Assembly (NCBI GenBank): GCA_963678065.2
Contig: CAXXVZ010000004.1
Span: forward strand, 160,001 to 224,000
Source: Treponemataceae bacterium
GTDB taxonomy: Bacteria > Spirochaetota > Spirochaetia > Treponematales > Rectinemataceae
Length of the DNA stretch: 64,000 nucleotides
Reading direction: 5' to 3'
The notes below the pieces were generated by a model. It saw nothing but the letters and a program-made list of their open reading frames with translations. It searched no databases and was not told the origin of the DNA. Positions 25,037 to 46,486 of the stretch are shown piece by piece (position 1 is the first letter of the stretch; each line of letters opens with the position of its first letter). A program made the translations under genes and the position numbers.

Positions 25037-25136
25037 GACCCGATGCTGGGCCCGAGGCCGTATAGCCTCAACAAAAACCAACCTGCGGGTGAGCCGCGTG
25101 TTGCCTCATCCAGAAATCAATCCGGAGGAAGGGCCG

Positions 25137-25165
25137 TTGCCTGTCCCGCCCTGCCCGCCTATACT
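25137..25165 (+). promoter_or_regulatory. Sigma70-type promoter for the GlpA-like gene (probably leaderless)
   Basis: TTGCCT-17 bp-TATACT, then 7 bp to ATG 25173; no SD. Confidence 0.6.
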
Positions 25166-25172
25166 GTCCATC

Positions 25173-26435
25173 ATGCAAGATGGAGCCGGAAGCTCTCCCC
25201 TGTCGGGACAGGGAGCGAGCCCTTTGACCAGAACGCAGGCCGCGAAAACTCCGGGGAGCGCGAGGCTCCGCGTCTGCGTTGTCGGAGGCGGCGGGACAGG
25301 AGCCGCCCTCGCCTACGATCTCGCGCTCCGCGGGGTGCAGGTCGTCCTCCTGGAACGCGGCGAACTCACATCGGGGACGACGGGACGTCACCACGGCCAG
25401 CTCCACTGCGGCGCGCGCTACGCCGCGGCGGACAGAACCATCGCCAGGGAGTGCTACGAGGAAAGCCTCATCCTCCGCAGGATCGTTCCTCAGGCTGTGG
25501 AGTACAATGGAGGCCTCTTCGTCGCCCTCTCCGACGAGGAGGCCGACTGGACCCCGACTTTCATGGCCGCCCTCGCCGAATCCGGCATCCCCGCGTCGCG
25601 TCTCACCGCGCAAAGAGCGCTCGAACTGGAACCCGCCCTCAATCCCTTGATCCGGCTGGCTGTTCGCGTTCCGGACGGAACCTTCGACGCCTTCCGGGTC
25701 CCGCTCTCGTTTTTCGCCGCGGCCCGCGCACTCGGGGCCGACATACGGCCCTGGTGCGAAGTCGTCGGCTTCGAGCGATCGGGAGGGAGGGTAGTTGCGG
25801 CCCAGGTGGTGGACAGGCGCAACGGGAGTCCCGTGGAGGAGAGCGTCCGCGCGGACTACTTCGTCAACGCCGCGGGAGCCTGGGCCGGCTCCGTCGGGCT
25901 TCTCGCGGGAGTCGACATACCGGTAACGCCCGCGCCTGGGGCCCTCCTCGCCGTCAGATGTCGCATCTGCGACCATGTCGTGAGCAGGCTCCGTCCTCCC
26001 GCCGACGGCGATATCATGGTGCCCCAGAGGGGACTTTCGATCATTGGTTCGACCCAGCGGGACGGCCCTGTCTCCGAGGCCATCCGCCCTCTCCCGGAAG
26101 AGATCGAATTCCTCCGACACTCAGGCGCGCAGATGTTCCCTGCGTATGCGGATGCACCACTGCACGCGGCCTGGGCCGCGGCGCGCCCGCTCTCGGGACG
26201 GGCCACGGGCGACAGCAGACTCCTGTCGCGGGATTTCACGGTGATCGACCACTCGTTGACCGAAGGACTGGGGGGATTCTGCAGCCTCATAGGTGGCAAG
26301 GCCACCGTGCTCAGGGCCATGGCCGAAAAGGCCGCGGACATGGTCTGCTCCGCCTTCGGCCTGAAGACCGTCTGCCGCAGTGCGGACTTCGTCCTGCCAA
26401 GCTGGCGAGACTTCTACAGGGGTGAGCGGCAATGA
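25173..26435 (+). CDS. FAD-dependent oxidoreductase, anaerobic glycerol-3-phosphate dehydrogenase subunit A (GlpA)-like, lacking the C-terminal BFD-like domain
   Basis: GGGGTG, 'SGTTGRHHGQLHCGARYA', 'VNAAGAWA', 'RLRPPADGDIMVP', 'SRDFTVIDH', 'GGKATVLRAMAE'. Confidence 0.78.
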   Translation: MQDGAGSSPLSGQGASPLTRTQAAKTPGSARLRVCVVGGGGTGAALAYDLALRGVQVVLLERGELTSGTTGRHHGQLHCGARYAAADRTIARECYEESLILRRIVPQAVEYNGGLFVALSDEEADWTPTFMAALAESGIPASRLTAQRALELEPALNPLIRLAVRVPDGTFDAFRVPLSFFAAARALGADIRPWCEVVGFERSGGRVVAAQVVDRRNGSPVEESVRADYFVNAAGAWAGSVGLLAGVDIPVTPAPGALLAVRCRICDHVVSRLRPPADGDIMVPQRGLSIIGSTQRDGPVSEAIRPLPEEIEFLRHSGAQMFPAYADAPLHAAWAAARPLSGRATGDSRLLSRDFTVIDHSLTEGLGGFCSLIGGKATVLRAMAEKAADMVCSAFGLKTVCRSADFVLPSWRDFYRGERQ

Positions 26436-27073
26436 AGGCGACCATCGTTCTCCCTTCGGGAGAATTCGAGGTGGAAATCTCGGAAACGACAACCGTGCTC
26501 GATGCCCTGGAAACCCTCAGGGCCACGACAAGGAAGGACCTGCGCTACCGGCACTCCTGCCACCATGGGTCCTGCGGAACCTGCGGCGCCCTCATCAACG
26601 GCGCGCCGGCCCTCATGTGCCTCACCCGGATGGCGCCGCTCGCCGACGTTCCCGTCAGGATCGAACCGCTGGGCAAGATGCAGGTGATCGGAGATGTGGC
26701 CGTCCATCCGGGAAACTTTTTCGACGCGATGCCCGATACCGGATATGTCCGCAAAAGTGGCGTGACGCACGATGCCCCGAAGCCCGAGGGTTCGCCCTGG
26801 GAGCGTTTCGAGGCGTGCATCGAATGCGGCATCTGCGTGTCGGCCTGCCCTGTCACGGCTCCCTTCGAAGGGCCGGCCGCCCTGGCTGCCGCCGACAGGG
26901 AGCGCGAAGAGCGCCCCGCTCGGACCGAGGCCATGCTCGACTTCGCCGCAAAGCCGCGCGGGGTTCCAGCCTGCGAGCGCAGATTCGCCTGCAGCAGGGC
27001 ATGCCCCCAGGGCGTGGCGCCGGGACGGAGGATAGAAAATCTCAGGAAGACCTTGGCCGCGGGTCGAAAATGA
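26432..27073 (+). CDS. SdhB/FrdB-like iron-sulfur protein
   Basis: 'SCHHGSCGTC...C' (2Fe-2S), 'CIECGICVSACP' (4Fe-4S), 'CERRFACSRACP' (3Fe-4S type); ATGA overlap with the upstream gene. Confidence 0.88.
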   Translation: MKATIVLPSGEFEVEISETTTVLDALETLRATTRKDLRYRHSCHHGSCGTCGALINGAPALMCLTRMAPLADVPVRIEPLGKMQVIGDVAVHPGNFFDAMPDTGYVRKSGVTHDAPKPEGSPWERFEACIECGICVSACPVTAPFEGPAALAAADREREERPARTEAMLDFAAKPRGVPACERRFACSRACPQGVAPGRRIENLRKTLAAGRK

Positions 27074-28020: not shown

Positions 28021-29283
28021 TCAGGAGACGCGGCGCAGGACGGTGACGCAGTTCGTGACGGAGCTGCCGCCGACATTGAAGGAGACGCCGACCTCGGGCT
28101 GGCTCTTGGCGGGCACGGCGCCGATGGGCCTCCCGACAAGCTGCCTGTGCAGGAGGGCGTGCATCGACACGCCGGTCGCGCCGACGGGGTGGCCCTTGGC
28201 CTTGAGGCCGCCGGAGAGATTGATGGCGCACTGCGGATCATCGCGGCCGAAGCGCCCGGCCATGTAGTCGTAGCCCGCGCGGCCGTCGGCCGAAAGCCCG
28301 AGCGCCTCGGTACACAGAAGCTGGTTGATCGTGAAGCAGTCGTGCACCTCGGCGATGTCGACATCTCCTATGCCGATTCCGGCCTCAAAGAAGGCGCGGC
28401 GCACGGCCTCCTTGCCCGCCATGAGCTCGTACATGTTGGGCCTGACCGACAGTGCGAGGCGCTCGTTGACGTGGCCGAAGCCGGCGATCTCGACGACGGG
28501 ACCGCCTCGCCTGCGAGCCTCTTCGGCGCTCATGACGACGAGGGCCGCCGCCCCGTCCGTGACGAGAGAGCAGTCGTGGAGGCGCAGGGGCTCGGCTATC
28601 ATCGGGTTCTTTTCCGGCGGCAGGCCGAGGATGGCCTGCGCCGTCACGAGACCGAGCTTGTCGGAGGGCCCGCCCTTCCCGAAATGGGCGAGCGGGTTGT
28701 CGAGGCCGTTGCGGTATCCCAGCGCCGAAACGTGGGCGAGCATGCGCGCGAGGGTCTCCGGGTCGAGGTTGTAGCGGGCGGCGTAGCCCTTCGCGTACTC
28801 GGAGAAGAGGCAGGGGAAGCTCACCGCTTTTGCACCCTCTTCCGGCCAATAGGAACAGGTGGCGAGGGCGTGGGTGACGCCCTTCGTGTCGAGGAGGTTC
28901 ATCTTCTCGACGCCTATGACGAGGGCGACCCTCGCCCTGCCCGACTCGACGGCGTAGATGGCGTTGTAGAGGGCGACGGAGCCGGAGGCGCAGGCGTCTT
29001 CGCAGCGTGTCATCGACTTGAAGCGGAGTCCCTCCGGGTCGACTTCCGTGGCGAACGCGGCGAGGTGCTCCTGGTTGGCGAAGAGGCCGGGCGCGCAGCT
29101 TCCCACCCAGACTCCGTCCACCTCCGCGCCGGTGAGGCCTGAGTCCGCGAGGGCGCCGCGGCCGGCCTCGACGAGGAGGTCGTAGATGGAGGCGAGATCG
29201 GTGACTTCGCCTGTCTCTTTGTTCTTTTTTACCAGGCTGCCGAATTTCGTGTTGTAGCTGCCGACGATCGATGTCTTGCCCAT
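28021..29283 (-). CDS. SCP2-type (non-classical) thiolase / acetyl-CoA acyltransferase
   Basis: 'EDACASG', 'GVEKM', 'DCSLVTDGAAA', 'EVHDCFT', 'NLSGGLKAKGHPVGATG', 'NVGG'. Confidence 0.9.
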   Translation of the reverse strand: MGKTSIVGSYNTKFGSLVKKNKETGEVTDLASIYDLLVEAGRGALADSGLTGAEVDGVWVGSCAPGLFANQEHLAAFATEVDPEGLRFKSMTRCEDACASGSVALYNAIYAVESGRARVALVIGVEKMNLLDTKGVTHALATCSYWPEEGAKAVSFPCLFSEYAKGYAARYNLDPETLARMLAHVSALGYRNGLDNPLAHFGKGGPSDKLGLVTAQAILGLPPEKNPMIAEPLRLHDCSLVTDGAAALVVMSAEEARRRGGPVVEIAGFGHVNERLALSVRPNMYELMAGKEAVRRAFFEAGIGIGDVDIAEVHDCFTINQLLCTEALGLSADGRAGYDYMAGRFGRDDPQCAINLSGGLKAKGHPVGATGVSMHALLHRQLVGRPIGAVPAKSQPEVGVSFNVGGSSVTNCVTVLRRVS

Positions 29284-29345
29284 GAGAAACTCCTTTTCAC
29301 AGGGTTTTGAGAAAGTCGAATGTGTTTTCAGTCTTCCTGTGTATT

Positions 29346-30131
29346 TCAGTGCCGCGCGGCGAAGCCTGCGACCAGTTTGACAAAGTACTCCGGATCCTCG
29401 GCCATGAGGGAGTGGCCGACATGCCCGACAATTTCGGGCTCTGCGTTGGGGAAAGCCTCCACGGTCTCGCGCATCATCGCTTCGGTCACGACGATATCCT
29501 TCCGCCCCCAGACCACGAGGACGGGCGCGGTGTAGCCGGAGCATTTCCCCCTGTAGTCGAAGCGCGTCAGCGCCCTCGCGTTTCCCGCGAAGGAGGCAGT
29601 ATTCATGAGGAGGGCCTCGTCGACAGCCTTTTCAAGGAAATCCGGATCGGTCAGTGTCGGGACGACGGAGCCGAGGGCGGCTTTCAGCACGGCGCGCGTC
29701 GTGCGCATCATCTCGATGAGGGGATACCGGTCCTCGGGTGTCTGCAGCCCCGAAGGGGCGGCCGAATCGACGAGAATCATAGCCCTGGAGAGTTCGGGCC
29801 GACGCGATGCTAAGGATATCGCGACGCCACCGCCGAGAGAATGCGCGACGACGAGGGGTTTATCCAGTCCGAGTTTCTCAATGAAGCCCGCGACGTAGTC
29901 CGCATACAGATCCAGATCGGAGGTGTCGGGCGCCGCGGCTTCGTCGATTCTGCCCGAACGCCCGAAATTGGGCATGTCGAGGGCTATCGTCCTGAAGCCC
30001 GGGATGTCCATGACCTTGGAGTACCAGTAGCTCGAGCCAGTGTTGCCGTGGATGTAGAGGATGGCGGGTCCCGATCCCGATTCGACATAGTAGATCGGAA
30101 CATTCAGCACGGTGACGAAAGCGCCTATCAT
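29346..30131 (-). CDS. Alpha/beta hydrolase (AHSLG nucleophile)
   Basis: 'IHGN', 'DMPNFGRS', 'AHSLGG', 'WGRKD', 'GH'; SD AGGAGG. Confidence 0.88.
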   Translation of the reverse strand: MIGAFVTVLNVPIYYVESGSGPAILYIHGNTGSSYWYSKVMDIPGFRTIALDMPNFGRSGRIDEAAAPDTSDLDLYADYVAGFIEKLGLDKPLVVAHSLGGGVAISLASRRPELSRAMILVDSAAPSGLQTPEDRYPLIEMMRTTRAVLKAALGSVVPTLTDPDFLEKAVDEALLMNTASFAGNARALTRFDYRGKCSGYTAPVLVVWGRKDIVVTEAMMRETVEAFPNAEPEIVGHVGHSLMAEDPEYFVKLVAGFAARH

Positions 30132-30197
30132 GAATAGACCTCCTGTCATGTCGGGGATGCCCTTTCGCGGACACCCCGACGGGCCGATTCGGCCAAT

Positions 30198-31118
30198 TTA
30201 ACAGCCCTGCAGCGAGCTGCGAGGCATGAAACCCGCCTGCGAGTCGATGAAGTCCCGCGCCGCGCGGCCCACCGCTTCGGGATCCTCGATGACGGCGGCG
30301 TGTCCCGCGCCGGGGATGACGGCGAGTCGGGCGCCCGGAATGCCGGCGGCTATTGTACGGGCGAAACCGCTGTGCTTCAGGATATCATTCTCCCCGACCA
30401 TGACAAGGGTGGGACAGGCAATATTTCCGAGGCGGCGCGTCAGGTCGATGTCGAGGAAGGCGTCGCAGAGCGAGACGAAGGCCGTGAAATAATCGCGAGG
30501 CAGGCAGGCCACGGCCGCCTCGCGCTTCGCGAGGAGTTCGCGGCTGCGGCCGATGTACGCGGCGGAATAATTCCAGGGTACGATGGCCCGGTAGAATGTG
30601 ACGGGGTCGGCGAGGGCCGCCCGCTTCCAGGATTCCACCGTGGCCGAAAGCAAAGGATCCAGCTCGCTCACCCCGTCGACGAGAACGAGGGAAGCGCAGC
30701 GTTCCGGGTAGTTCAGGGCGAAAACCATGGCCACCTCGGCGCCGTATGAGGTGCCGACGAGGTGGGCCCGGGCGATTCCTCGCAGGTCCATGAGGGCCGC
30801 AAGGTCGTCGGCGTGCATTTCGAGGCTGTAGGGCCCGTCGGGTCGGTCGCTCAGCATCTGCCCTCGCATGTCGTGGCAGAGGCAGCGGTAGCTGTCCGCG
30901 AAAAACGGCAGCAAGGGCTTCCAGTGCGCGATCGTCATCGCGATCCCGTTCAGGAAGGCGACAGTCGGCCCGGGACGAATCCGCGTCTCTTCCGAAGGCG
31001 CGGCCGGGGCCTCAGCCGAGACCGCGGCCGATATCCTGGCTGCGGCCCCTATTTCGGACGGCAGGGTTTCGGAGTCCTCGAAGGCCAGTCCGACGCCGTC
31101 GACCTTGATCCTGTCCAT
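30198..31118 (-). CDS. Alpha/beta hydrolase, enol-lactonase (PcaD)-like
   Basis: 'HDMRGQMLS', 'GTSYG', 'GEND', 'AGHA'. Confidence 0.85.
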   Translation of the reverse strand: MDRIKVDGVGLAFEDSETLPSEIGAAARISAAVSAEAPAAPSEETRIRPGPTVAFLNGIAMTIAHWKPLLPFFADSYRCLCHDMRGQMLSDRPDGPYSLEMHADDLAALMDLRGIARAHLVGTSYGAEVAMVFALNYPERCASLVLVDGVSELDPLLSATVESWKRAALADPVTFYRAIVPWNYSAAYIGRSRELLAKREAAVACLPRDYFTAFVSLCDAFLDIDLTRRLGNIACPTLVMVGENDILKHSGFARTIAAGIPGARLAVIPGAGHAAVIEDPEAVGRAARDFIDSQAGFMPRSSLQGC

Positions 31119-31120
31119 GC

Positions 31121-31843
31121 TCAGATCCCCAGGTAGGACGTGAGGACGTGGGGATTGGTCTTGAGGCCCTGGGCGGAGTCCTCGATGGCGATGACTCCGT
31201 TCTCGAGCACATAGCCCCTGTCGATCGCCCTGAGGCTCTCGCGCACGTTCTGTTCGGTGACGAGAATGGAGACTGTTTTCTTGAGTTCCTTCAGGACTTC
31301 GAAAACTTCAGCCACGAGCGAAGGCTGAAGCCCGAGCGAGGGTTCGTCGAGAATGAGAAGCCGCGGATTGGACATGAGGGCCCGGCCGATGGCGACCATG
31401 CGCTGCTGCCCCCCTGACATGGTGCCGGCGTATTGTTTGTAGCGCTCCTTCAGTATCGGGAAGAGGCTGAACACCTTTTCGAGCTGGCTGTCCGCGATGT
31501 CCTTCGCGTGAGGGATGAAGGCCGCCCCGAGGGCGAGATTGTCGGCCACCGACATGCCGGGGAAGAGCTCCCGCTCCTGGGGAACGAGGGCGATTCCCGC
31601 ACGGGCCATCGCGAAAGTCTCGGTGCCGAGGATGTCCTTTCCGTCGAATTTGACCGAGCCCGACCAGGCCTTTCCGATTCCCATGACGGCGTTGATGAGG
31701 GTTGTCTTGCCGGCGCCATTCGGACCGAAGAGCCCTACGGACTCGGGCGCCCCCGTTCCTTCCTCGCCGACGTGGAGGGACACGCCCATGAGCACTTTCA
31801 GTTTTCCGTAGCCGCATTCGAGATTTCTGATGTCGAGCATCAT
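31121..31843 (-). CDS. HAAT-type ABC ATP-binding protein (LivF-like)
   Basis: 'GPNGAGKTT', 'AGTMSGGQQRM', 'LDEPSLGL', 'EQN'. Confidence 0.9.
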   Translation of the reverse strand: MMLDIRNLECGYGKLKVLMGVSLHVGEEGTGAPESVGLFGPNGAGKTTLINAVMGIGKAWSGSVKFDGKDILGTETFAMARAGIALVPQERELFPGMSVADNLALGAAFIPHAKDIADSQLEKVFSLFPILKERYKQYAGTMSGGQQRMVAIGRALMSNPRLLILDEPSLGLQPSLVAEVFEVLKELKKTVSILVTEQNVRESLRAIDRGYVLENGVIAIEDSAQGLKTNPHVLTSYLGI

Positions 31844-32559
31844 GCCGCACCTCCGAGATAGGCCTCGATGACGCGCGGGTTTTTGGAAACCGTCTCGTAG
31901 GGCCCCTCCGCTATAAGTTCGCCCGCCTCGAGCACGATGACTCTGTCGGTCAGCTCGCGAATGACGCCCATGACGTGCTCTACGACGCCCACGGCGATTT
32001 TCTCGCGCCGGGTGACTTCCTTGATGAGGCGGATGACTTCCTTTGTCTCGTCGGAGTTGAGGCCGGCCATGATCTCGTCGAGGAAGAGGACGCGCGGTCC
32101 GTTTGCGAGTGCGTGCGCTATTTCCATCTTCTTCGTTTCGAGCATCGTGAGCTGGGATATCTCGCGCTCCAGGCGGGTGAGTCCCATGGACTCGCAGAGC
32201 TCGCCTGCGTGCTGCCGGGCTCTGCGCAGACTCTCGCGCCTCGCGAATATGAAGCCGACCATGACGTTCTCGATCACGTTGAGGTTCTCGAGGGGATGGA
32301 TGAGCTGGTAGGTCCTCGCGATGCCCATCCTGGCGCGTTCGTGCGCCGGCAGCTCGGTTATGTCCCTGCCGTTGAAGGTGATAGTGCCGGATGTCGGCAT
32401 GTATATTCCCGAGATCAAGTTGATGAATGTCGTCTTTCCCGCGCCGTTGGGGCCGATGATGCCGAGAATCTCGCCGGCATCGATCGAGAAGCTCACGTCA
32501 TTCACGGCGACGAGGCCGCCGAAGCGCTTTGTCAGTCCGTTTGTTTCAAGACTGGGCAT
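31840..32559 (-). CDS. HAAT-type ABC ATP-binding protein (LivG-like)
   Basis: 'KRFGGLVAV', 'GIARTYQ', 'VEH', 'VIEAYLG'. Confidence 0.9.
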   Translation of the reverse strand: MPSLETNGLTKRFGGLVAVNDVSFSIDAGEILGIIGPNGAGKTTFINLISGIYMPTSGTITFNGRDITELPAHERARMGIARTYQLIHPLENLNVIENVMVGFIFARRESLRRARQHAGELCESMGLTRLEREISQLTMLETKKMEIAHALANGPRVLFLDEIMAGLNSDETKEVIRLIKEVTRREKIAVGVVEHVMGVIRELTDRVIVLEAGELIAEGPYETVSKNPRVIEAYLGGAA

Positions 32560-33478
32560 TTCTCTTTCTCCTCGCGTTCCGGACAATGCCGTAGATGCCG
32601 TTGGGCATGAACAGGATGACCAGGATGATGATGAAACCGTAAACCATGAGGTATCCGTAGGGGATCTTCAGTTTGAGGAATTCCGAGGCCAGGCCGAGAA
32701 GGACAGCGCCGATGATGGGTCCCCAGGTGGAGTGGATGCCGCCGAGCAGGGCCATCGCGAGTGGCAGGAGGGTGTAGTTCCCGTCGAAGGAAGAATCCGG
32801 CATCGCAAAGCCGTAGGACATGACCTGGACGCCGCCTATGAGTCCCTGGAGGAAGGAGGTGACGACGAAGACAACGATGAGGTTGGCGAAGATATTCACG
32901 CCGCTCGAACGCGCGCTCGTCTCGTTGTTGCGGATCGCGGTGAGGGCGAAGTGCAGCCTCGATCTTTCGAATATCACCGAAGCCCCGACCGTCACGATGA
33001 CCATGCCGAAGGAGAGCCAGTACAGAAGGGCCGAGTTGCCCTTGAACATCACGTTCTCGAGCACGAGGCCCTCCGGGCCGCCTGTGAACGAGGACCAGTT
33101 GTGGATGATGACCTTAAAAATCTCCGCGAGGGCGAGAGTCGTGATCGAGAAGTAGATTGCCCTGAGCCTCAAGATCAGGAATCCGAGGATGAGCGCGACG
33201 AGGGCGGCGAAGACCGCCGAGAGCAGGATGGCCGCGGCAGGAGGAAAGCCTGCTTTGACGGCGGCCATGGCGGCCGCGTAGCTGCCGAGGCCATAGAATC
33301 CCGCGATGCCGAAGGATATCTGGCCGGAGCGAAGAAGCATGTCCCAGGTGATCGCAAGGGCCATGTAGGTGAAGATGCTTCGCGCGACCGCCTGCGGATA
33401 GGCGCCGAGGCCCAGGGGCAGGAGGGCGCCGGCCGCCGCGACGACGAGGGGCAGGATCCATTTCGTCGATTTGTTCAT
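32546..33478 (-). CDS. HAAT-type ABC permease (LivM-like)
   Basis: 'GQISFG', 'LRLRAIYFSITTLA', 'FTGGPEG', 'AIRNNE'. Start at MNKSTK. Confidence 0.9.
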   Translation of the reverse strand: MNKSTKWILPLVVAAAGALLPLGLGAYPQAVARSIFTYMALAITWDMLLRSGQISFGIAGFYGLGSYAAAMAAVKAGFPPAAAILLSAVFAALVALILGFLILRLRAIYFSITTLALAEIFKVIIHNWSSFTGGPEGLVLENVMFKGNSALLYWLSFGMVIVTVGASVIFERSRLHFALTAIRNNETSARSSGVNIFANLIVVFVVTSFLQGLIGGVQVMSYGFAMPDSSFDGNYTLLPLAMALLGGIHSTWGPIIGAVLLGLASEFLKLKIPYGYLMVYGFIIILVILFMPNGIYGIVRNARRKRNAQS

Positions 33479-34398
33479 ATTTTCCTCTCCTTGTGCGACC
33501 TGACCATGATCACGACGATGATGATCGCGAAGAAGACGATGTTGGACCAACCCGACATGCCCCTGAAGGAGCTGATGAAGGCTTCGGAGAGTCCGAGAGC
33601 GAGGCTTCCGTAGAGGATGCCGGGGATGTTGCCGACCCCGGCCATCGCCACGAGGCAGAATGATTTCATCGTGAAGGGCGAACCCACGTTGGGAAATATC
33701 GAAAAGCGCGTCAGGAACACCGATCCCATGATTCCGACGAGGACGACGGAGATGGTGAATACCCCGACGAATATTTTCTGTACGTCGATGCCGACAATGG
33801 CCGCGCCGCGAGGATTCTGGCCGACGGCCAGGGCCGCCTTGCCGAGCCTCGTGTGAGTGAGGAAGTATTTGAGTGAGTAGGCCATGACGATCGCGATTCC
33901 CACGAACACGAAATTGAAAATGCCGAAACTCGTTTCGCCGATTGTCATCGACGCGGAGACATAGTCGAGCGGAATTTTCCTGGTCTGGGAGGTGAACAGG
34001 ATTGTGATGGCTTGGCTCAGCGTTATGGCGATGCCGAAGGTGAGGATGAGCTGGTTGAGCTCGGGCGCCTTCAGCGAATGCTTTATGGTGAGCTTGAATA
34101 TGCCGAAGCCCAGTATGGCCATGACGACCGTGACGGGGACGAGGGCGAGAAGCGGATCGATTCCAAGGGAACGGCTCACGAAATAGGTGACATAGGCGGA
34201 GACCATGAGGAGTTCTCCGTGAGCCAGGTTGACGATGTGGACTATTCCGAGTACGAGCCCCATGGGGATCGCGATGGCGGCGTAGAGTCCGGCCTGCTGG
34301 ACGCCGTATATCAGGACGGTCGGTTTCCAGGCGATCATGATAGCGGCGGCGACAAGTCCGGTCAGTCCGTAGATGATGGTCTTTTTGTTCAGTGTCAT
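33475..34398 (-). CDS. HAAT-type ABC permease (LivH-like)
   Basis: 'IVNLAHGEL', 'TRLGKAALAV', 'GVGNIPG'. Confidence 0.9.
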   Translation of the reverse strand: MTLNKKTIIYGLTGLVAAAIMIAWKPTVLIYGVQQAGLYAAIAIPMGLVLGIVHIVNLAHGELLMVSAYVTYFVSRSLGIDPLLALVPVTVVMAILGFGIFKLTIKHSLKAPELNQLILTFGIAITLSQAITILFTSQTRKIPLDYVSASMTIGETSFGIFNFVFVGIAIVMAYSLKYFLTHTRLGKAALAVGQNPRGAAIVGIDVQKIFVGVFTISVVLVGIMGSVFLTRFSIFPNVGSPFTMKSFCLVAMAGVGNIPGILYGSLALGLSEAFISSFRGMSGWSNIVFFAIIIVVIMVRSHKERKI

Positions 34399-34421
34399 TG
34401 CTCACCCCGGGTTCATTGTAC

Positions 34422-34461
34422 AAAAAGGCGGCCAGGAAACAACAACTGTCGCCCGGCCGTC
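34422..34461 (-). terminator. Hairpin + U-tract between the binding-protein gene and the permeases
   Basis: Minus strand GACGGCCGGG...CCTGGCCGCC-TTTTT. Confidence 0.55.
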
Positions 34462-34513
34462 ATTGAAGGGGGCGCGCCTTCTTGAAGGCACGCCCCGGCA
34501 GGAGACAGTAGCC

Positions 34514-35710
34514 TTATTTCCAGGCCGGGAAAGGATACACGGGATCGGCGGTCTTGACGTCGAAGGGCCAGATCACTTCCTGGCGGCCGTTCTGCCACTG
34601 GAGGATCTTCTGGTTCCGCACGCCCTGATGCTTGATCACGTTGGAGGGCGTGAAGGTGATGGTCTCGCCGAGAGGAGAAGCGTACTTCGTCTGCTCGAGC
34701 GCCTTGATGACGGCGGCATTGTCGGTGGAACCGGCTCGCTTGATCGCATCGACGAGGATGTAGACCGCGGAGTACGAGAGCGGGGCGAAGTAGGTAGCCG
34801 GCTCGTATTTGTACTTGGCCACGAATGAGTTGTAGAATTTGTCGCTCACCGGGCTGATGTCGTTGATCGAGGGCGCCCACATGCCGTAGAGACTCACGTT
34901 GTTGGCGAGGGAGGATTTCCCGAAATCCTTGGGCCATCCCGGAGGAGCTCCGACGTAGAGGGGCGGGGAGAACTTCATCGCCTTGGCGCTCTCGAGCATC
35001 GGAAGCGCGTCTGCGTCGTAACCTGCCCAGAGGAAGAGGTCGGGCTTGTAGGCCTTGGCCGCTTCCAGCATGGAGGTGTAGTCGCCGCCACCGAGTGCCG
35101 CGCTCTTGAAGGAGGCGCCGTCGAACTGGTAGTCCTTGCCGAACAATACCTTGGACTGATCGAAGGAGGCCTTGCCGAAAGCGCCTTCCTCATAGGCGAG
35201 GAACATCCTCGTGATCTTCATCTTGGGATACTTGGCCTGAAGCTCGGCCCAGCCGGTCTGATAGCTCGCGGCCTGATTGTAGTCCCAAGGATGCAGGTGG
35301 AAGTACCAGTCGGCATCAGCGCCAAGGGCCTTCTCGACGAGGCTGCTCGCCGCGCCGGTGGAGACGACGATCTTCCCGTACTTCTTCATTGTCGGTATCT
35401 GGCCGAGCGCGACGCCGGAAGCCATTCCGCCAATGAGGAAGTCGACTTTGTCGACCGTGACGAGCTTCTCGAGGGCCGCGACGCCCTTGTCGGCTTTCAG
35501 CTCGTCGTCGACGATAATGAGCTGGAGCTGTTTGCCGAGGACTCCGCCTGCCTTGTTGATCTCCTCGACGGCCATCAGGGCCGCCTTGGAACCATGGTCT
35601 CCCGTGACATCGGCGAGCGGCCAGGTTGCGCCGATCTTGATGACGCCCTGTCCGAAGGCCGCCGACGCGAGGAGCGCGAAGAGCGCAGCGACAGCGATTG
35701 TCTTTTTCAT
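34514..35710 (-). CDS. HAAT-type ABC substrate-binding protein (LivK-like fold)
   Basis: Signal peptide, 'IKIGATWPL', 'AVEEINKAGGVLGK', 'ILQWQNG..VIWP'; SD AAGGAGG. Confidence 0.9.
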   Translation of the reverse strand: MKKTIAVAALFALLASAAFGQGVIKIGATWPLADVTGDHGSKAALMAVEEINKAGGVLGKQLQLIIVDDELKADKGVAALEKLVTVDKVDFLIGGMASGVALGQIPTMKKYGKIVVSTGAASSLVEKALGADADWYFHLHPWDYNQAASYQTGWAELQAKYPKMKITRMFLAYEEGAFGKASFDQSKVLFGKDYQFDGASFKSAALGGGDYTSMLEAAKAYKPDLFLWAGYDADALPMLESAKAMKFSPPLYVGAPPGWPKDFGKSSLANNVSLYGMWAPSINDISPVSDKFYNSFVAKYKYEPATYFAPLSYSAVYILVDAIKRAGSTDNAAVIKALEQTKYASPLGETITFTPSNVIKHQGVRNQKILQWQNGRQEVIWPFDVKTADPVYPFPAWK

Positions 35711-35833
35711 CCGTGCCTCCTTGAACTGTCGAAAACCGTTTCCCGGTCTGCGGCCGACGGCCGGTTCCGGAAACGGCAAAAGTACCCACTGGTTGGCGGC
35801 CCCGCATATCGGGCCCGCATTCGCCATCCCGGT

Positions 35834-36571
35834 TTACAGAACCAGGCCTCCGTCCACTCGCAGGACCTGTCCGGTGATGAAGACCGCCTCGTCGCTGGAA
35901 AGGAAGAGGACGGCGTTCGCGATATCGATGGGCTCGGCGAGCCTGCCGAGGGGGGTCTTGGCGATGAAGGGCTCGAGGACTTTTTCCGGCACGCTCGCGA
36001 TCATAGGCGTGCGGCAGTAGCCAGGCGAAACCGAGTTGACGCGGACCTTGGCACCTTTACGGGCGAATTCCTTGGCCCAACCCTTGGTCATGGAGACCAC
36101 GCCGCCCTTGGTGGCCGCGTAGTTGGACTGGCCGATGTTGCCGTCCAGGCCCACGACGCTCGAAATGGAGACGACCGAGCCCGAGCCGCACTGCATCATG
36201 ACGGGGGCGACGGCGCGGGTCATCTTGAAAACGCCCGTCAGGTTGACGGCGATGACGGCGTCCCAGTCCTCGTCGGACATTTTCTGGATCAGCGCGTCGC
36301 GCGTGATGCCGGCGTTGTTGACGAGAGCGTCGATGCGCCCGAATTCGGCGACGACTTTCGTCACGAAATCGTTGATGCCTGCGGTATCCGTGACGTTGAG
36401 CACGACGCCCCGGACGTTGGACCTGCCCGCTTCCAGCTCGGCGAAGGCCGAATCGTTCACGTCGATGGCGAAGACCATGGCCGCGCCCTCGGCTGCGAAG
36501 CGGTCGACGATCGTCCTGCCTATTCCGCGGGCCCCGCCCGTCACCACACAAACCTTGTCTTTCATCCTCAC
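35834..36571 (-). CDS. fabG: 3-oxoacyl-(ACP/CoA) reductase, FabG-like SDR
   Basis: 'TGGARGIG', 'NNAGITRD', 'GNIGQSNYAATK'. GTG start after GGAGG (alternative ATG 36565). Confidence 0.85.
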   Translation of the reverse strand: MRMKDKVCVVTGGARGIGRTIVDRFAAEGAAMVFAIDVNDSAFAELEAGRSNVRGVVLNVTDTAGINDFVTKVVAEFGRIDALVNNAGITRDALIQKMSDEDWDAVIAVNLTGVFKMTRAVAPVMMQCGSGSVVSISSVVGLDGNIGQSNYAATKGGVVSMTKGWAKEFARKGAKVRVNSVSPGYCRTPMIASVPEKVLEPFIAKTPLGRLAEPIDIANAVLFLSSDEAVFITGQVLRVDGGLVL

Positions 36572-36617
36572 GATGGATTCCTCCCCTTCCTGACGTTCTG
36601 TATGTTTTTCCGCCGGA

Positions 36618-37631
36618 TTATCCGGCATAGGGTCCCCAGAGAACCACAGAGCTCGCCCATACGAATCCGAGCCCCGCGCCGACGAGCACGATGCGCGCGC
36701 CATCGCGGATTTTCCCCGCGTCGAGCCCCAGCTTTATGGAAAGCAGCTGGTCGTTCTGGCCGATATGGCCGTAGTCGTCGAGGTAGGTGGACTGTTCCTG
36801 CGAGAGCCCGAGCTCGGCCAGGACGGCTTCGTGGGCGCTTCTCTTGAAATGGAGGATGGCGAGGTAGTCGATATCCCGCTCCCCATAACCCGATTTCTTC
36901 ATGGACTCGCGGATGACGGTGTAGAAGTTGGGCATCGTCACCTCGCCGAGCTTCTTTTTGAAGGCTTCGTCGTCGGGTACGACGAAATACGGATGCTCCG
37001 CATCGGCGGCCGATGGCGGCCAGGCCCTCGACCCGAGGACGGGAACCACGCACATCTCCGAGAGCGAACCGTCGCCCCGGAACGCCGAGGCGAGGACGGC
37101 GTTCTTTCCGAGGTTCTTGCGCAGCACACAGGCCGATCCGCCCGAGCCGATGTCCATCATGAAGCGCGTGGAGGGATTCGCGAGGTCGATGAGATCGTTG
37201 TTCCGGTAGCCCGAGACGAGGAGGACGGTAAAGAGGTCGTCGCGGGCGAGCATGAGGGACTTGGCGACGTCCAGGGCCGCCATCATGGAGCCGCACATAG
37301 CCTCCATATCGAAGCTCCATGCGCGATCTGCGCCGAGACGATGGGCGACATTGAGGCCCGCGAGCCAGCAGGGATAGTCCTTGTGCTGGGCTCCGCACCA
37401 GATCAGAAGGTCAATTTCGGAAGCCTCGATCCCGGCGTCAGAGAGCGCGGCAGTCGCAGCGCGGTATCCCATCTCGGCGGTACTGTCTTCGGGGCCCGCG
37501 ATGGGTTTGGACTTGATACCGAATTTCTTCGCGATGACCTCTTCGGGAACGGAGGTGGCGGCGGAAAGCTCCGCGGCGCTCATCCTTCGTGGGGGCAGCC
37601 ATACGCCGATGCCCGCTATGCCAACATGCAT
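36618..37631 (-). CDS. KAS III (FabH)-like condensing enzyme, Cys-His-His variant
   Basis: Thiolase fold with 'DMEAMCGS', 'ILHFK', 'YGHIGQND', 'GAGLGFVW'. Confidence 0.85.
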   Translation of the reverse strand: MHVGIAGIGVWLPPRRMSAAELSAATSVPEEVIAKKFGIKSKPIAGPEDSTAEMGYRAATAALSDAGIEASEIDLLIWCGAQHKDYPCWLAGLNVAHRLGADRAWSFDMEAMCGSMMAALDVAKSLMLARDDLFTVLLVSGYRNNDLIDLANPSTRFMMDIGSGGSACVLRKNLGKNAVLASAFRGDGSLSEMCVVPVLGSRAWPPSAADAEHPYFVVPDDEAFKKKLGEVTMPNFYTVIRESMKKSGYGERDIDYLAILHFKRSAHEAVLAELGLSQEQSTYLDDYGHIGQNDQLLSIKLGLDAGKIRDGARIVLVGAGLGFVWASSVVLWGPYAG

Positions 37632-37649
37632 GTCAATCTCCGTAACAAG

Positions 37650-37843
37650 TGAATCGTCTCTCATTCGAGAATCAATCCATTTTCCGAATTCGTCAAGCAA
37701 AAAACAACACAGCCACGTCATTTTCTTACATTTTCGATAATTTTTTATCCAATACAGCGATAATAATCCGTTTTAGTGCGTTTTTTCGTTGCAAGTCCAC
37801 CAAAACGGGTCTATAATCGTCGGTAATACTGAATCACTTCTCA
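37650..37843. promoter_or_regulatory. Divergent promoter region with two TGAATC-N4-CTCA candidate operators
   Basis: Plus promoter TTGCAA(37789)-17-TATAAT(37812); minus promoter TTGACG-17-GATTCT; motif copies at 37650-37663 and 37830-37843. Confidence 0.6.
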
Positions 37844-37861
37844 CGCCAGCGGGGGTGAAGG

Positions 37862-39007
37862 ATGACAGAACAAAAAGAGGCGCAGAGAAAAGCCGAAACG
37901 GAGGAGAGACTCCTCCGGGCGGCGACTGCGCTTTTTGCCGATAAATGGTATGGAACGGTATCTGTCGCCGAAGTCTGCCGCACTGCGGGACTCTCCAACG
38001 GAGTCTTCTACAAGTACTTCACGAACAAGGAAGAGTTGTTCAAGAAAATCCTCGGCCGCATACTCGACCTGATCGCGGATTCGGTGGCGCGCGTGACAGG
38101 CTCCACGCCCGCCGAGAGACTCCGCAGTCTGACGGGCATCCTCGTGCGCTTCTCCGCGGACAATTCCGGGCTGGTGTCGGTGTTCCGCGAGGGCCAGTAC
38201 CGCTTCTTCGAATACGAACAGCGCCTGGTGAGGATCTATATGGACGCCCTCGCCGCGGCTCTCGGCAGAGCCGTGGAACTTCCGGAATACGTGTTCGCGC
38301 TCGGCGGCATCAGGTTCTCCGCCATCCGTCACGCCTTCCACCAGGTTCCCATCGACCTCGACAGCCTGTACAGTATCGTGGCGCGCGGACTCTTCCCTGA
38401 TCTTTCCGCCGACACCGAGAGAGTGTTCATGGGAAGCATCACTCCCCTCCCCTTCGACATAGAGCCCGACGCGCGGGAGCGCCTCCTCTCGGAGGGAAAA
38501 GTCCTCTTCGGGAAAAAGGGATTCTTCGAGACGAATATCCACGAGGTCACAGACGCTGCGGGTCTCTCCGTCGGCGCCTTCTACACCTATTTCGAGAGCA
38601 AGGAAAGTTTCTACGCCGAACTCATCGACCGCGTCGGGAAGGAAGTGCGGCACTTCATCTCCCTCAACATGGGGAAAGGCCTCAACAGGCTCGAGCGGGA
38701 GATGCGGGGAATCTGGCTCTTCACCGTGCTCCTCTCCATAGACAAGAACTGCTACAACATCGTGCGCGAAGCCGAGTTCGTCCTGCCACAGAAGGCCCGC
38801 GAATACTACCAGGCTTTCGTGGCCGGATACCTGCGGAATCCCGAGGGCAACGGCCAGGCCGACGAGAGGACGGCGATCGAATTCCTTCTCGGCGTGGCGC
38901 ACTATTTCGGCCTCGAAGTGGCCTTCGACGATTCGCCCGCCAACGCGCGCTCCGTCGTCGAGACTATAGGAACCTACCTCGTACGGGGTTTTTCGGACTT
39001 CGTATAA
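37862..39007 (+). CDS. TetR family regulator with two tandem TetR units
   Basis: HTH1 'AGLSNGVFYKYFTNKEE' and HTH2 'AGLSVGAFYTYFESKES'; 381 aa is about twice a TetR monomer. Confidence 0.9.
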   Translation: MTEQKEAQRKAETEERLLRAATALFADKWYGTVSVAEVCRTAGLSNGVFYKYFTNKEELFKKILGRILDLIADSVARVTGSTPAERLRSLTGILVRFSADNSGLVSVFREGQYRFFEYEQRLVRIYMDALAAALGRAVELPEYVFALGGIRFSAIRHAFHQVPIDLDSLYSIVARGLFPDLSADTERVFMGSITPLPFDIEPDARERLLSEGKVLFGKKGFFETNIHEVTDAAGLSVGAFYTYFESKESFYAELIDRVGKEVRHFISLNMGKGLNRLEREMRGIWLFTVLLSIDKNCYNIVREAEFVLPQKAREYYQAFVAGYLRNPEGNGQADERTAIEFLLGVAHYFGLEVAFDDSPANARSVVETIGTYLVRGFSDFV

Positions 39008-39038
39008 CTTCGACTTCAGACATTTCCGGAGGAATGAT

Positions 39039-40064
39039 ATGGCCAAGGCGAGGATTATCGGCACCGGGGTTTACGCGCCCGGCGAAGCGATCGACAACGA
39101 AAGACTGAAGGCCCTGACGGGCGTCGAGTTCGACTCGGGCAAGCTCGAAGCGAAGATCGGCATCCGCGCGCGGCATATCGCGAGGTTATGCGACGCAGAA
39201 TCCCCCGTCTCGCGCGAAACGACGGCGGACTTCTGCGAACATGCGGCGCGCGCGGCCCTCTCGGCGGCCGGCGTGGATCCGGAGGATGTCGGCATCTTCG
39301 TCGTCGCGACGGACACACCCGAGTACATCTCCCCCGCGACCGCCATCATTCTCCAGGGCAGGCTCCAGGGCGGCGAGCGCGAGACCGAATCCTTCGACGT
39401 GGGAGCCTCCTGCGCGAGCTTCGTCACCGCCCTCGACCTCGTCGCGCGCAGGATCGCGACCGACCCTTCAATGCGCTACGCGGTAGTCGTCGGCGTCTAC
39501 AACATGCCCGCCTTCGTCCGTCCCGGAGACGCCTTCGGCTGGTCGATCTTCGCCGACGGAGCGGGCGCCGTCGTTCTCGCGCGCACGGAGGATGGCGACT
39601 CTTCCGGCTACGTGGAGGGGGTGTTCAGGTCGGACGGGACACAGTGGGATTACGTCGGCGTCTACGCAGGGGGCACGCGCAAACCGGTCACGAAAGAGCT
39701 TCTCGACGCGGGGACCTGGGGGCTCGAACTCCTGCAACGCCTTCCGGGAGACCGGAATGTCAAGCTCTGGCCGCCCCTCGTACGGAGGCTTCTGGAGAAA
39801 GCGGCGTACACGCAGGAGGGCGTGGCCCACTACATCTTCACGCAGATCAACCGATCCGTCATCGCCGAGGTCATGGGAATCCTCGGAGAGGACATGTCGA
39901 AGACGACGACGGTCATGGACCGCTACGGCTACACGGGATCGGGATGCGTGCCCATGGCCCTGCATCACGCGATCGCCGAGGGGAGGGTCCGGAAAGGCGA
40001 TGCCGTAGTCCTCGTCGCCTCCGGGGCGGGACTCGCGGTCGGAGCGAACCTCATCGTCCTGTGA
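39039..40064 (+). CDS. KAS III (FabH)-like protein lacking the canonical His and Asn
   Basis: 'IIGTGVYAP', 'VATDTPEY', 'DVGASCASF', 'FADGAGAVV', 'FTQIN', 'YGYTGSGCVP', 'SGAGL'. Confidence 0.85.
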   Translation: MAKARIIGTGVYAPGEAIDNERLKALTGVEFDSGKLEAKIGIRARHIARLCDAESPVSRETTADFCEHAARAALSAAGVDPEDVGIFVVATDTPEYISPATAIILQGRLQGGERETESFDVGASCASFVTALDLVARRIATDPSMRYAVVVGVYNMPAFVRPGDAFGWSIFADGAGAVVLARTEDGDSSGYVEGVFRSDGTQWDYVGVYAGGTRKPVTKELLDAGTWGLELLQRLPGDRNVKLWPPLVRRLLEKAAYTQEGVAHYIFTQINRSVIAEVMGILGEDMSKTTTVMDRYGYTGSGCVPMALHHAIAEGRVRKGDAVVLVASGAGLAVGANLIVL

Positions 40065-40106
40065 ACGGCGCGGCACAAGAAAAACAAGAAAAAAAGGAGG
40101 CCATCC

Positions 40107-41414
40107 ATGAATTGGGCGGACACATACAAGTCAAGACTCGTGGACATCGATACGGCTGTTTCGAAGATCGGCACGGACAACGACGTCATCGTCGCCATGT
40201 GCGCCTCGGAACCTCAGGGCTGTATGAGTCGTTTCCATACTATTGCGGATCGGGTCGAGGAGGTGCGCGTTTTTTCCTGCCTCACCCTCAAGCCCTACGA
40301 TTTCTACATGAAGCCTGAAATGAAGGGGCACTTCGAACTCGCGAGCTGGTTCCACGCGCCCGGCTCGAGGGCGGCGCTCAAGGCCGGAAACGGTACGGTG
40401 ACCTTCGTTCCGAACATGCTGCACCGCTCGGCCTCGGACAGGATACACGCGCGCAGGCCCGACATCTTCTTCGGCACCTGCACGCCGCCGGACAAACACG
40501 GCTTCGTCTCCCTCTCCCTCGGCATCACCTACGAGAAGGACATCATCGAGGCGGCGAGAATCGTCGTGCTCGAGGTGAATCCGAGACTCCCGCGCACCCT
40601 CGGCGACACACAGATCCACGTCAGTGCGGTCGATTTCTTCGTCGAGAACGACCAGGAAGTGCCCTCCCTCCCCGCCCCGGAGCCGAACGGGACGGACATG
40701 ACTATCGGCGGCCACATCGCGGAACTCGTGGATGACGGATCCACCATCCAGCTCGGCATAGGCGGCATCCCCAACGCGGCCGCCCTGGCCCTGCGGGACA
40801 AAAAAGATCTCGGCGTCCACACGGAGATGTTCGTCGACTCGATGATGGAGCTCTACGAGATGGGCGTCATCACCAATGCGCGCAAGAGCCTGAAGCCGGG
40901 GAAATTCGTGACGACCTTCGCCATGGGCTCGCGCGCCCTCTACGACTGGCTCGACGACAATGTCGTCGTGGAATTCCAGCGCGGACGCTGGGTGAACGAC
41001 CCGCACACCGTCGCCCAGAACTCGAAGATGGTCTCGGTGAACACCTGCATCATGGTGGATCTCACGGGCCAGGTCGCGAGCGAGAGCATCGGGGCCGCGC
41101 AGTATTCGGGCACGGGGGGGCAGTCGGACACCGCCCAGGGCGCGGTCGCCGGAACGGACGGGCTCGGCAAGAGCATCATCGCCTGCTACTCCACGGCCAA
41201 GAACGGAACGGTGTCGACGATCGTACCGACCCTGCCCGAGGGAAGCGCCGTGACTCTGCACCGGAGCTTCGTCGACCACGTCGTGACGGAGAACGGCATC
41301 GCCCGCCTGCGCGGCAAAACCGTCAGGGAAAGGGTGCGCGAGCTCATCGGCATCGCGAAGCCAGAGTTCCGCGCCGATCTGGAAGCGGGAGCGCGGAAAC
41401 TCGGCTACCTCTGA
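40107..41414 (+). CDS. Acetyl-CoA hydrolase/transferase family (4-hydroxybutyrate CoA-transferase-like)
   Basis: 'QLGIGGIPNA', 'DLGVHTEM', 'VDLTGQVASE', 'SGTGGQ', 'VVTENGIA'. Confidence 0.92.
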   Translation: MNWADTYKSRLVDIDTAVSKIGTDNDVIVAMCASEPQGCMSRFHTIADRVEEVRVFSCLTLKPYDFYMKPEMKGHFELASWFHAPGSRAALKAGNGTVTFVPNMLHRSASDRIHARRPDIFFGTCTPPDKHGFVSLSLGITYEKDIIEAARIVVLEVNPRLPRTLGDTQIHVSAVDFFVENDQEVPSLPAPEPNGTDMTIGGHIAELVDDGSTIQLGIGGIPNAAALALRDKKDLGVHTEMFVDSMMELYEMGVITNARKSLKPGKFVTTFAMGSRALYDWLDDNVVVEFQRGRWVNDPHTVAQNSKMVSVNTCIMVDLTGQVASESIGAAQYSGTGGQSDTAQGAVAGTDGLGKSIIACYSTAKNGTVSTIVPTLPEGSAVTLHRSFVDHVVTENGIARLRGKTVRERVRELIGIAKPEFRADLEAGARKLGYL

Positions 41415-46138: not shown

Positions 46139-46481
46139 GCCGGTGTTCCGCGATGGCCGGGGAAAGATCGGAGGAATCGACGGGGCGCTGACGTTCGTTC
46201 GACATGGCCAGACATTTTTTCGGACAGGCGATGACGCAGGCCCCGCAGATCACGCAGGCCAGTCGGTCGATCCTCCAGCTGGATTCGGCGCGTTTCACGA
46301 CGATGGCAGCCGCCGGGCAGTGGCGCTGGCAGGCCCCGCAGAAGATGCAGTTCGGGAAGTCGATCTCTATCCGTCCCCGGGTCGCCGCGAAGGGCTTCCG
46401 GACCACGAAGGGATATCGCCGGGTCGCCGGTTTCGAAAGCAGGTTGCGAAGCGCGATGCGCGCCATGGGCATGAAACTCAC
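46131..46481 (-). CDS. echF: Ech hydrogenase 2x[4Fe-4S] subunit
   Basis: 'KPATRRYP', 'CIFCGACQRHCP', 'CVICGACVIACP'; GTG start after GAGGT. Confidence 0.88.
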   Translation of the reverse strand: MSFMPMARIALRNLLSKPATRRYPFVVRKPFAATRGRIEIDFPNCIFCGACQRHCPAAAIVVKRAESSWRIDRLACVICGACVIACPKKCLAMSNERQRPVDSSDLSPAIAEHRRA

Positions 46482-46486
46482 TGCGT

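Follow-up and report, generated by a model that had tools for sequence, protein, structure and literature searches.

The gene cluster and its conservation

We analysed 64,000 nucleotides of a Treponemataceae genome (assembly GCA_963678065.2, contig CAXXVZ010000004.1, positions 160,001 to 224,000; "the window" means this whole stretch), in which 13 genes at positions 28021-41414 form a cluster that encodes an importer, two alpha/beta hydrolases, a regulator and enzymes of acyl-coenzyme A (acyl-CoA) metabolism. All 13 genes are open and could be assigned to families, with ten on the minus strand and three on the plus strand (Table 1). The initial annotation, made from the sequence alone, had described two non-canonical enzymes of the 3-ketoacyl-acyl carrier protein synthase III (KAS III) type together with an importer and hydrolases in one 13-kb cluster. 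This description holds, and the His and Asn of FabH are missing from both KAS III proteins (KASa and KASb). Of the SCP2-thiolase that it named, the thiolase is present, but no SCP2 domain was found in it. The intergenic gaps within the arms measure -14 to 123 bp and the arms are 230 bp apart, which leaves no room inside the cluster for an acyl carrier protein (ACP), FabD, an acyl-CoA ligase or a dehydratase, in agreement with the initial annotation. In more distant relatives, however, an acyl-CoA ligase and a MaoC dehydratase do form part of the module. The GC content of the cluster is about that of the rest of the window. The host genome (G000) is 99.94% complete and 6.72% contaminated.

Table 1. 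Genes and regulatory sites of the cluster, with positions in the window
Feature	Position	Strand	Basis or context
Thiolase, 420 aa, PRK07516-like, Cys98 + HDCF + GHP motifs; predicted acetoacetyl-CoA thiolase	28021..29283	-	profile match NF005704
HYD1, serine alpha/beta hydrolase, AHSLG + HGNTGSS	29346..30131	-	best NCBIfam NF050089, below cut-off
HYD2, serine alpha/beta hydrolase, GTSYG	30198..31118	-	tree, cluster-specific orthologue
LivF-type ABC ATPase	31121..31843	-	profiles
LivG-type ABC ATPase	31840..32559	-	profiles
LivM-type permease	32546..33478	-	profiles
LivH-type permease	33475..34398	-	profiles
HAAT-family substrate-binding protein (livK)	34514..35710	-	PF13458
FabG/PhaB-like short-chain dehydrogenase/reductase (SDR), Asp ending strand 2 (NAD-type); predicted (R)-3-hydroxyacyl-CoA dehydrogenase	35834..36565	-	alignment, PDB matches 4NBT, 4NBU
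KASa, KAS III-fold, PRK06840/NF005308, Cys113-His289-Asp294; predicted ester:CoA acyltransferase	36618..37631	-	profile, alignments
Operator copy 1, TGAGA-N3-GATTCA	37650..37663	-	just 3' of conserved left-arm TTGACG box (37696-37691)
Operator copy 2	37830..37843	-	13 nt 3' of right-arm promoter TTGCAA-17-TATAAT (37789-37817, +)
Tandem double TetR regulator	37862..39007	+	domain matches
KASb, KAS III-fold, Cys125, Thr268-Gln269, Tyr298, Cys303	39039..40064	+	alignments
Family I CoA-transferase, 4-hydroxybutyrate CoA-transferase type, HTEM + GTGGQ	40107..41414	+	PF02550 + PF13336, PDB 3EH7 match

The closest relatives of KASa are 69-82% identical to it and come from Spirochaetota and Holophagaceae; Geothrix fermentans and Rectinema subterraneum are cultured carriers of the cluster. 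The 80 close KASa loci divide into 53 of spirochete type and 27 of other types (mostly Holophagaceae), and the 24 spirochete-type loci with enough flanking sequence were scored. KASa, KASb, TetR and HYD1 are present in all 24, the liv genes in 23, the CoA-transferase in 22, the thiolase and HYD2 in 19 each and the SDR in 14; the flanking genes, counted for contrast, occur in 15 (tatD), 6 (DUF4097), 5 (glpA) and 0 (DUF2992). The genes are thus kept together, which was the check that the initial annotation had proposed. In the 27 remaining loci the same kinds of parts recur in changed orders, with another Liv importer, a porin and often MaoC and an extra hydrolase. Judging from these gene orders, the conservation is partly due to shared ancestry, yet the module outlasts rearrangement. 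Near-identical pieces of KASa, the CoA-transferase, livK and livF were also found in two lake metatranscriptome assemblies, although such contigs are no proof of transcription or induction. The cluster is a real, conserved and uncharacterised uptake-and-catabolism system.

The operator pattern TGAGA-N3-GATTCA is present in 68 of the 69 TetR-KASa intergenic regions from which it was derived, with two copies on one strand in 53. The two copies of the window rank first and second genome-wide, both being among the 125 training sites. The genome-wide scan did not extend the regulon: no gene is linked to a third site, at C2:630129. A match in Bacillus and Brevibacillus was not counted because it overlaps a Shine-Dalgarno-like stretch. 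The sister clade described below has a single TetR and a symmetric TGAA-N6-TTCA, and the C-terminal half of the double TetR is nearer to this single TetR than the N-terminal half is. The asymmetric operator would fit a fused pair of unlike TetR domains.

KAS III proteins, oxidation enzymes and importer

KASa belongs to the family NF005308 (PRK06840; 437 bits, cut-off 315) and falls below both FabH models, NF006829 and TIGR00747 (122 and 125 bits, cut-offs 249 and 292). In alignments to solved FabH structures, Leu260 takes the position of the FabH His and His289 that of the Asn, with Asp294 five residues further. Cys113, His261, Lys263, His289 and Asp294 are invariant in an alignment of 54 sequences. 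The motif GH-x4-D is present in 120/120 close KASa homologues and in 80/82 distant KASa open reading frames (ORFs), the two exceptions being N-terminal fragments. According to passages of PMC9573744, the triad with which ChlB3 and CerJ transfer acyl groups without decarboxylation is Cys113-His296-Asp301. The Cys and His-x4-Asp of these KS III-like acyltransferases are found in KASa only, not in KASb, and the motif of KASa aligns in register with PDB 9Z38. Matches in the ESM Atlas carry generic names only.

KASb is likewise below the two FabH models (180 and 146 bits) and is no member of PRK06840 (122 bits against NF005308). Cys125, Thr268 and Tyr298 stand at the positions of the FabH Cys-His-Asn triad, so that the triad is not preserved, and the pattern Cys125, Thr268-Gln269, Tyr298, Cys303 is kept in 118/120 homologues, which form a group of their own. 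KASb is probably a second acyl-transfer enzyme. An obligate PqsBC-like heterodimer of KASa and KASb is not proposed, since KASa occurs without a neighbouring KASb in 80/80 metagenome loci of the sister clade and KASb retains its Cys. A second KASb-type paralogue was detected in spirochetes that carry PHA (polyhydroxyalkanoate) synthase (L168-L171), in two of them beside a long-chain acyl-CoA ligase. A canonical FabH with PHQAN sits in the fab operon on contig C3 of the host genome, and a housekeeping fatty-acid role of KASa and KASb was rejected on this ground. That both might be ordinary malonyl-ACP-dependent FabH, which the initial annotation had named as counting against it, is not upheld, as neither has the malonyl-decarboxylating residues in the alignments.

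The Asp after strand 2 of the SDR, a mark of NAD preference in SDRs, is present in 29/29 close orthologues and 43/43 scored sister-clade orthologues, while FabG of the fab operon in the host has Ser/Arg at this place. The top PDB matches are 4NBT (258 bits) and 4NBU (236 bits), both listed as NAD-bound in a section of PMC5264612. The Asp would favour the oxidative direction, as support rather than proof. The SDR is missing from 10/24 close loci; 3/3 checked genomes without it carry an Asp SDR of the Holophagae type, and two genomes with it do not.

The CoA-transferase has a full-length match to PDB 3EH7 (348 bits) and carries PF02550, PF13336 and the catalytic Glu motif of family I, without reaching the butyryl-CoA:acetate model TIGR03948 (238.5 bits, cut-off 674.8). 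The thiolase scores 340.9 bits against NF005704 (cut-off 412), and its orthologues occur in 13 of 301 spirochete-phylum genomes; a second sample comprised 301 genomes of Acidobacteriota (the Geothrix phylum). Genome searches of the host returned no match to acyl-CoA dehydrogenase or crotonase, which implies that the substrate of the SDR and thiolase must already be a 3-hydroxy or 3-oxo compound; one (S)-type 3-hydroxyacyl-CoA dehydrogenase lies outside the cluster. No match to class III PhaC was found in the host genome either (TIGR01836, E 1e-10), so the host does not qualify as a PHA producer mobilising its own store and the substrate would come from outside. A second thiolase-like gene lies elsewhere in the host genome (G000:C5:1072000-1084000, L147), together with genes for an (S)-3-hydroxyacyl-CoA dehydrogenase, a TRAP-like transporter and a corrinoid-like protein, and with two genes that resemble family III CoA-transferases.

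With a PF13458 binding protein, two PF02653 permeases and two ATPases, the importer is of the HAAT family. None of LivK, LivH, LivM, LivG and LivF reaches its LIV equivalog cut-off (70.9/477, 84.9/379, 96.7/366, 195.6/362 and 221.2/441 bits, respectively). The binding protein has only distant PDB matches (best 59 bits), with no close solved relative and no clue to the ligand.

Sister operons, hydrolases and PHA synthase

The sister clade of KASa comprises the best 80 of 477 metagenome relatives from a broad-alignment scan. Its KASa is 36-44% identical to that of the window and passes the NF005308 cut-off. The usual sister operon contains TetR, a classic thiolase, FabG, KASa, livHMGF, a binding protein, the CoA-transferase, HYD2 and a PhaZ-like hydrolase. 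A full-length PhaZ-like gene of the Bacillus type was found in 22/80 sister loci, in 20/36 of those of at least 10 kb and in 17/22 of those with 7 kb on each side. Among 31 PhaZ-like ORFs, 14 proteins were tested and 12 of these pass NF050089, the model of intracellular short-chain-length PHA depolymerases. Bacillus PhaZ is an intracellular depolymerase of polyhydroxybutyrate (PHB) that was originally annotated as an enol-lactonase, as stated in part of PMC7236355. Some sister loci (L204, L205, L229, L197) add MaoC, acyl-CoA dehydrogenase, electron transfer flavoprotein and acetate kinase (the last in two), which could be the parts for dismutation of 3-hydroxybutyrate (3HB) to acetate and butyrate.

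Records from Bacillus, Brevibacillus and haloarchaea show KASa with Liv genes, and in several with ligase and MaoC too. The module in Bacillus and Brevibacillus (L084:9460-19736, L085:9317-15745) runs TetR-ligase-MaoC-KASa-NHL repeat protein, and an alpha/beta hydrolase is not adjacent. In another genome (G286, L107:8284-18133) KASa is accompanied by three hydrolases, FabG and a ligase, with a sodium:solute symporter and a TonB-dependent receptor replacing the Liv importer; no KASb was found in this genome with the query used. Two high-GC loci (L189, L193) have KASa alone, with no pathway neighbours.

HYD1 finds its best family in NF050089, at 96.5 bits and below the cut-off of 300. It carries the HGNxxSS oxyanion motif of the sister-clade PhaZ and a Ser lipase box. 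HYD2 of the window groups with HYD2 of the sister clade and of Holophagae (a 13-row clade, support 95/89), and it scores highest against a lactonase family without reaching the cut-off (130 bits, cut-off 256). In five spirochete loci LivM and HYD1 are fused into one protein of 582-587 aa (L110:14552-16315, L112-L115), which ties the hydrolysis to the imported molecule.

Among the 301 spirochete-phylum genomes, KASa was detected in 11, KASb in 13 and a PhaC-like protein in 4. The genomes with KASa have KASb in 11/11 cases and the thiolase in 10/11; those with a PhaC-like protein have KASb and the thiolase in 4/4 and KASa in 3/4 (P-value = 1.4e-4, Fisher test; about 7e-4 at family level, with kin not independent). 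In the PhaC-bearing spirochetes the genes are scattered as KASa-CoA-transferase pairs, KASa with three MaoC, and lone KASb and thiolase. Two spirochete genomes have a PhaC paralogue at the head of a livHMGF operon, and in one the distance between KASb and phaC is three genes. Low-GC spirochete-phylum genomes (G318, G329, G333; also G314) carry 3-6 class III PhaC-like paralogues (L140:2822-8007, L141:6713-12664, L138, L139, L142-L145), and the paralogue that heads livHMGF has a GWC-GG box, as if the PhaC fold acted on an imported substrate.

Proposed function and relation to known systems

We propose, with a probability of roughly 0.6, that the cluster lets a fermenting spirochete, in which no PHA synthase was detected, take up short esters of (R)-3-hydroxybutyrate (PHB oligomers) that other cells release and convert them to acetyl-CoA. 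The Liv-type ABC system would import the oligomers, and HYD1 and HYD2 would cut them down to the monomer. The CoA-transferase would activate the monomer (or an oligomer) with acetyl-CoA as the donor. The NAD-type SDR would then oxidise (R)-3-hydroxybutyryl-CoA to acetoacetyl-CoA, which the thiolase would split into two acetyl-CoA, and the double TetR may keep both arms repressed from the two asymmetric operators as long as no compound of the pathway is bound. The Cys-His-Asp triad of KASa could shift the 3-hydroxybutyryl unit from the oxygen ester to CoA, saving the cost of activation; given the pathway, we hold this predicted step to be slightly favoured over its absence. The net yield per monomer would be one acetyl-CoA by hydrolysis and CoA transfer, and two by thiolysis of the ester. 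As the importer is driven by ATP, it is the uptake of oligomers and their cleavage with CoA that would render the route profitable for a fermenter. PhaZa1 is a precedent for the thiolysis of PHB to 3HB-CoA (a passage of PMC7147478). Rectinema, the genus of two cluster carriers, is an obligate H2-producing fermenter of necromass in an excerpt from PMC6052044, where hydroxybutyrate is not mentioned.

That an imported ester is broken down by hydrolysis, CoA transfer, oxidation at the 3-hydroxy group and thiolysis had been the first suggestion of the initial annotation; it gains support here, and among the substrates suggested then the sister PhaZ and the link to PhaC narrow it to a hydroxy-acid oligomer, namely (R)-3-hydroxybutyrate esters. 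For acyl-homoserine lactones (AHLs), also suggested, no supporting neighbour or family was found.

Several observations weigh against the proposal. The PhaZ evidence comes from another KASa clade (36-44% identity), in whose loci KASb is found in 0/80, and HYD1 of the window is outside the PhaZ family in which it scores a third of the required bits (26% identity). The HYD1 clade stands beside the PhaZ clade in the tree with weak support (77/89), and among PDB matches the PHB depolymerase 8YNV is only at rank 6, covering the N-terminal half alone. No secreted PHB depolymerase was found linked to the cluster; a PF10503 match in the host genome (39.9 bits) is weak and in an unrelated operon. For KASa, CerJ and ChlB3 rank under FabH in sequence searches. 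A fold search with its model (mean predicted local distance difference test score, pLDDT, 94.1) returned FabH-type folds (Z 37-40, 18-27% identity), and CerJ and ChlB3 are not among the 50 fold matches listed. Ser replaces the catalytic Cys in KASa of Bacillus and Brevibacillus. In G318 a fab operon, too, encodes an SDR of the Asp type, so the Asp does not prove the direction, and the reaction of KASb is not explained by the PHB pathway. As to PhaC, the spirochete statistic comes from three families that may be related to one another, no spirochete PhaC-like protein reaches the TIGR01836 cut-off, and the link is absent in Acidobacteriota, where 10 of 301 genomes have KASa and 11 have PhaC but no genome has both.

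The same chemistry might serve esters or amides with longer 3-hydroxy or 3-oxo acyl chains (fragments of lipid A, ornithine lipids or rhamnolipids, medium-chain PHA, AHLs), with one acetyl-CoA removed, the shortened acid excreted, and the paired KAS and hydrolases widening the chain range. The position of HYD1 outside the PhaZ family would suit such substrates, as would a spirochete binding protein that differs from those of Bacillus/Holophagae and the sister clade, a long-chain acyl-CoA ligase in 8/80 close loci and the restriction of KASb to some clades. However, orthologous HYD2, CoA-transferase, SDR, TetR subfamily and KASa link the cluster to operons that encode a bona fide depolymerase of short-chain PHA, the CoA-transferase is of the C4 hydroxy-acid type and an amidase is absent from the cluster, and we consider longer substrates unlikely.

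A biosynthetic role is quite improbable. The thiolase and SDR would make (R)-3-hydroxybutyryl-CoA, from which CerJ-like KAS III enzymes would build a 3HB ester, oligomer or signal, sensed or recycled by the importer, hydrolases and TetR. The Cys-His-Asp triad is indeed known from ester-forming as well as transfer enzymes, and KASa, KASb and thiolase are dispersed in spirochetes with PHA synthase. Against this stand the NAD-type SDR, two hydrolases and an importer with no exporter, the permease-hydrolase fusion, and, in relatives, the addition of acetate kinase and of modules that form butyrate. Synthesis of a signal, the second suggestion of the initial annotation, becomes less likely for similar reasons, as the importer, the NAD-type SDR, the fusions and the PHB depolymerase neighbours point to uptake and breakdown.

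Use of 4-hydroxybutyrate or gamma-butyrolactone, in which HYD2 would open the lactone and the CoA-transferase activate 4-hydroxybutyrate, draws on the similarity of the CoA-transferase to 4-hydroxybutyrate CoA-transferases, its closest relatives, and of HYD2 to a lactonase, though below that family's cut-off. We regard it as very improbable: no 4-hydroxybutyryl-CoA dehydratase occurs among the recurring neighbours (no genome-wide search was made), the host has no crotonase match, and PhaZ, MaoC and the FabG/PhaB-like SDR would be left unexplained. The ordinary reading suggested by the automatic gene names, a branched-chain amino-acid importer beside spare copies of FabH/FabG that prime fatty-acid synthesis, is largely refuted by two KAS proteins without His and Asn and below the FabH cut-off, the canonical FabH on contig C3, liv genes all below the LIV cut-offs, and the shared operator and conserved module.

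Beyond the cluster, the window encodes at 25089-27073 a GlpA-like FAD oxidoreductase shorter than its family model and, after it, an SdhB-like Fe-S protein; glpB and glpC are not adjacent. From 46131-48446 and beyond, on the minus strand, a run of genes resembles subunits of a membrane NiFe hydrogenase, which we take to be of the Ech type and which is a possible electron sink. One 18-base stretch occurs three times in the host genome (C5:786829, 842935, 1118158) and is probably part of a repeated element.

The use of soluble PHB fragments by non-producers has so far been described only loosely. A 2026 review names such organisms 'continuers', and the word transporter does not occur in it (PMC13372988). 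For PHB-fragment use the cluster supplies a candidate importer, regulator, operator and enzymes. If the scavenging of 3HB esters is confirmed, a broad mis-annotated family, PRK06840, would gain a function, KAS III chemistry would reach from natural-product acyl transfer into primary catabolism, and a storage polyester would join the necromass diet of fermenting spirochetes, with a bearing on anaerobic bioplastic breakdown. More tentatively, the PRK06840 'ketoacyl-ACP synthases' might in general be oxygen-ester thiolases that convert PHB oligomers directly to 3HB-CoA, in an energy-saving cross-feeding pathway of spirochetes, Holophagae, low-GC anaerobes, bacilli and haloarchaea. KASb would then be another transfer enzyme, one that PHA-storing spirochetes use as well.

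A full-text literature search, with most subscription journals and supplements outside its scope, found no description of the cluster or of the function of PRK06840, and an excerpt of PMC6566015 contained nothing on spirochetes. Several known systems resemble the cluster in part. The SDR is similar to the NADH-type FabG of Acholeplasma laidlawii (4NBT) and Bacillus sp. SG-1 (4NBU), its top sequence matches, which are reported to have been studied as variants of fatty-acid FabG, whereas the cluster SDR is encoded among uptake genes and the housekeeping FabG at another place. The CoA-transferase shares the family I fold, the HTEM catalytic motif and a full-length match with the 4-hydroxybutyrate CoA-transferases 3EH7 and 3GK7; unlike in 4-hydroxybutyrate systems, no 4-hydroxybutyryl-CoA dehydratase is among the neighbours, and the predicted substrate is 3HB.

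Olefin synthesis by OleABCD combines a KAS III-like enzyme, an SDR, an alpha/beta hydrolase and an AMP-ligase, and the nucleophile of OleB is not serine. The cluster has the first three components, with a ligase in some relatives, but its hydrolases have the Ser motifs AHSLG and GTSYG, an importer is present, a ligase is not, and KASa has no His/Asn pair, so it does not belong to this system. KASa resembles ChlB3 (7EQI), CerJ (3S3L), DpsC and PDB 9Z38 in the KAS III fold, the Cys nucleophile, the His-x4-Asp and a hydrophobic residue at the position of FabH His244. Those enzymes work with carrier proteins in the pathways of streptomycete natural products, whereas KASa has an ACP-free catabolic context and, unlike the ChlB3/CerJ group, extra invariant His261, Lys263, Lys84 and Arg143.

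PHB mobilisation and (R)-3HB catabolism (PhaZ of the Bacillus thuringiensis type, NF050089, PDB 8YNV; PhaA/PhaB/PhaJ; the thiolytic PhaZa1 of Cupriavidus necator) likewise employ serine hydrolases, a FabG/PhaB-like SDR and a thiolase, with MaoC in relatives of the cluster. The cluster differs in its host without a PhaC match, its coupled ABC importer, a HYD1 that fails NF050089, the lack of a dehydrogenase route for free 3HB and the two KAS III-fold proteins. What both have in common is the route through 3HB-CoA to acetyl-CoA, predicted for the cluster, and true NF050089 members are present in the sister operons.

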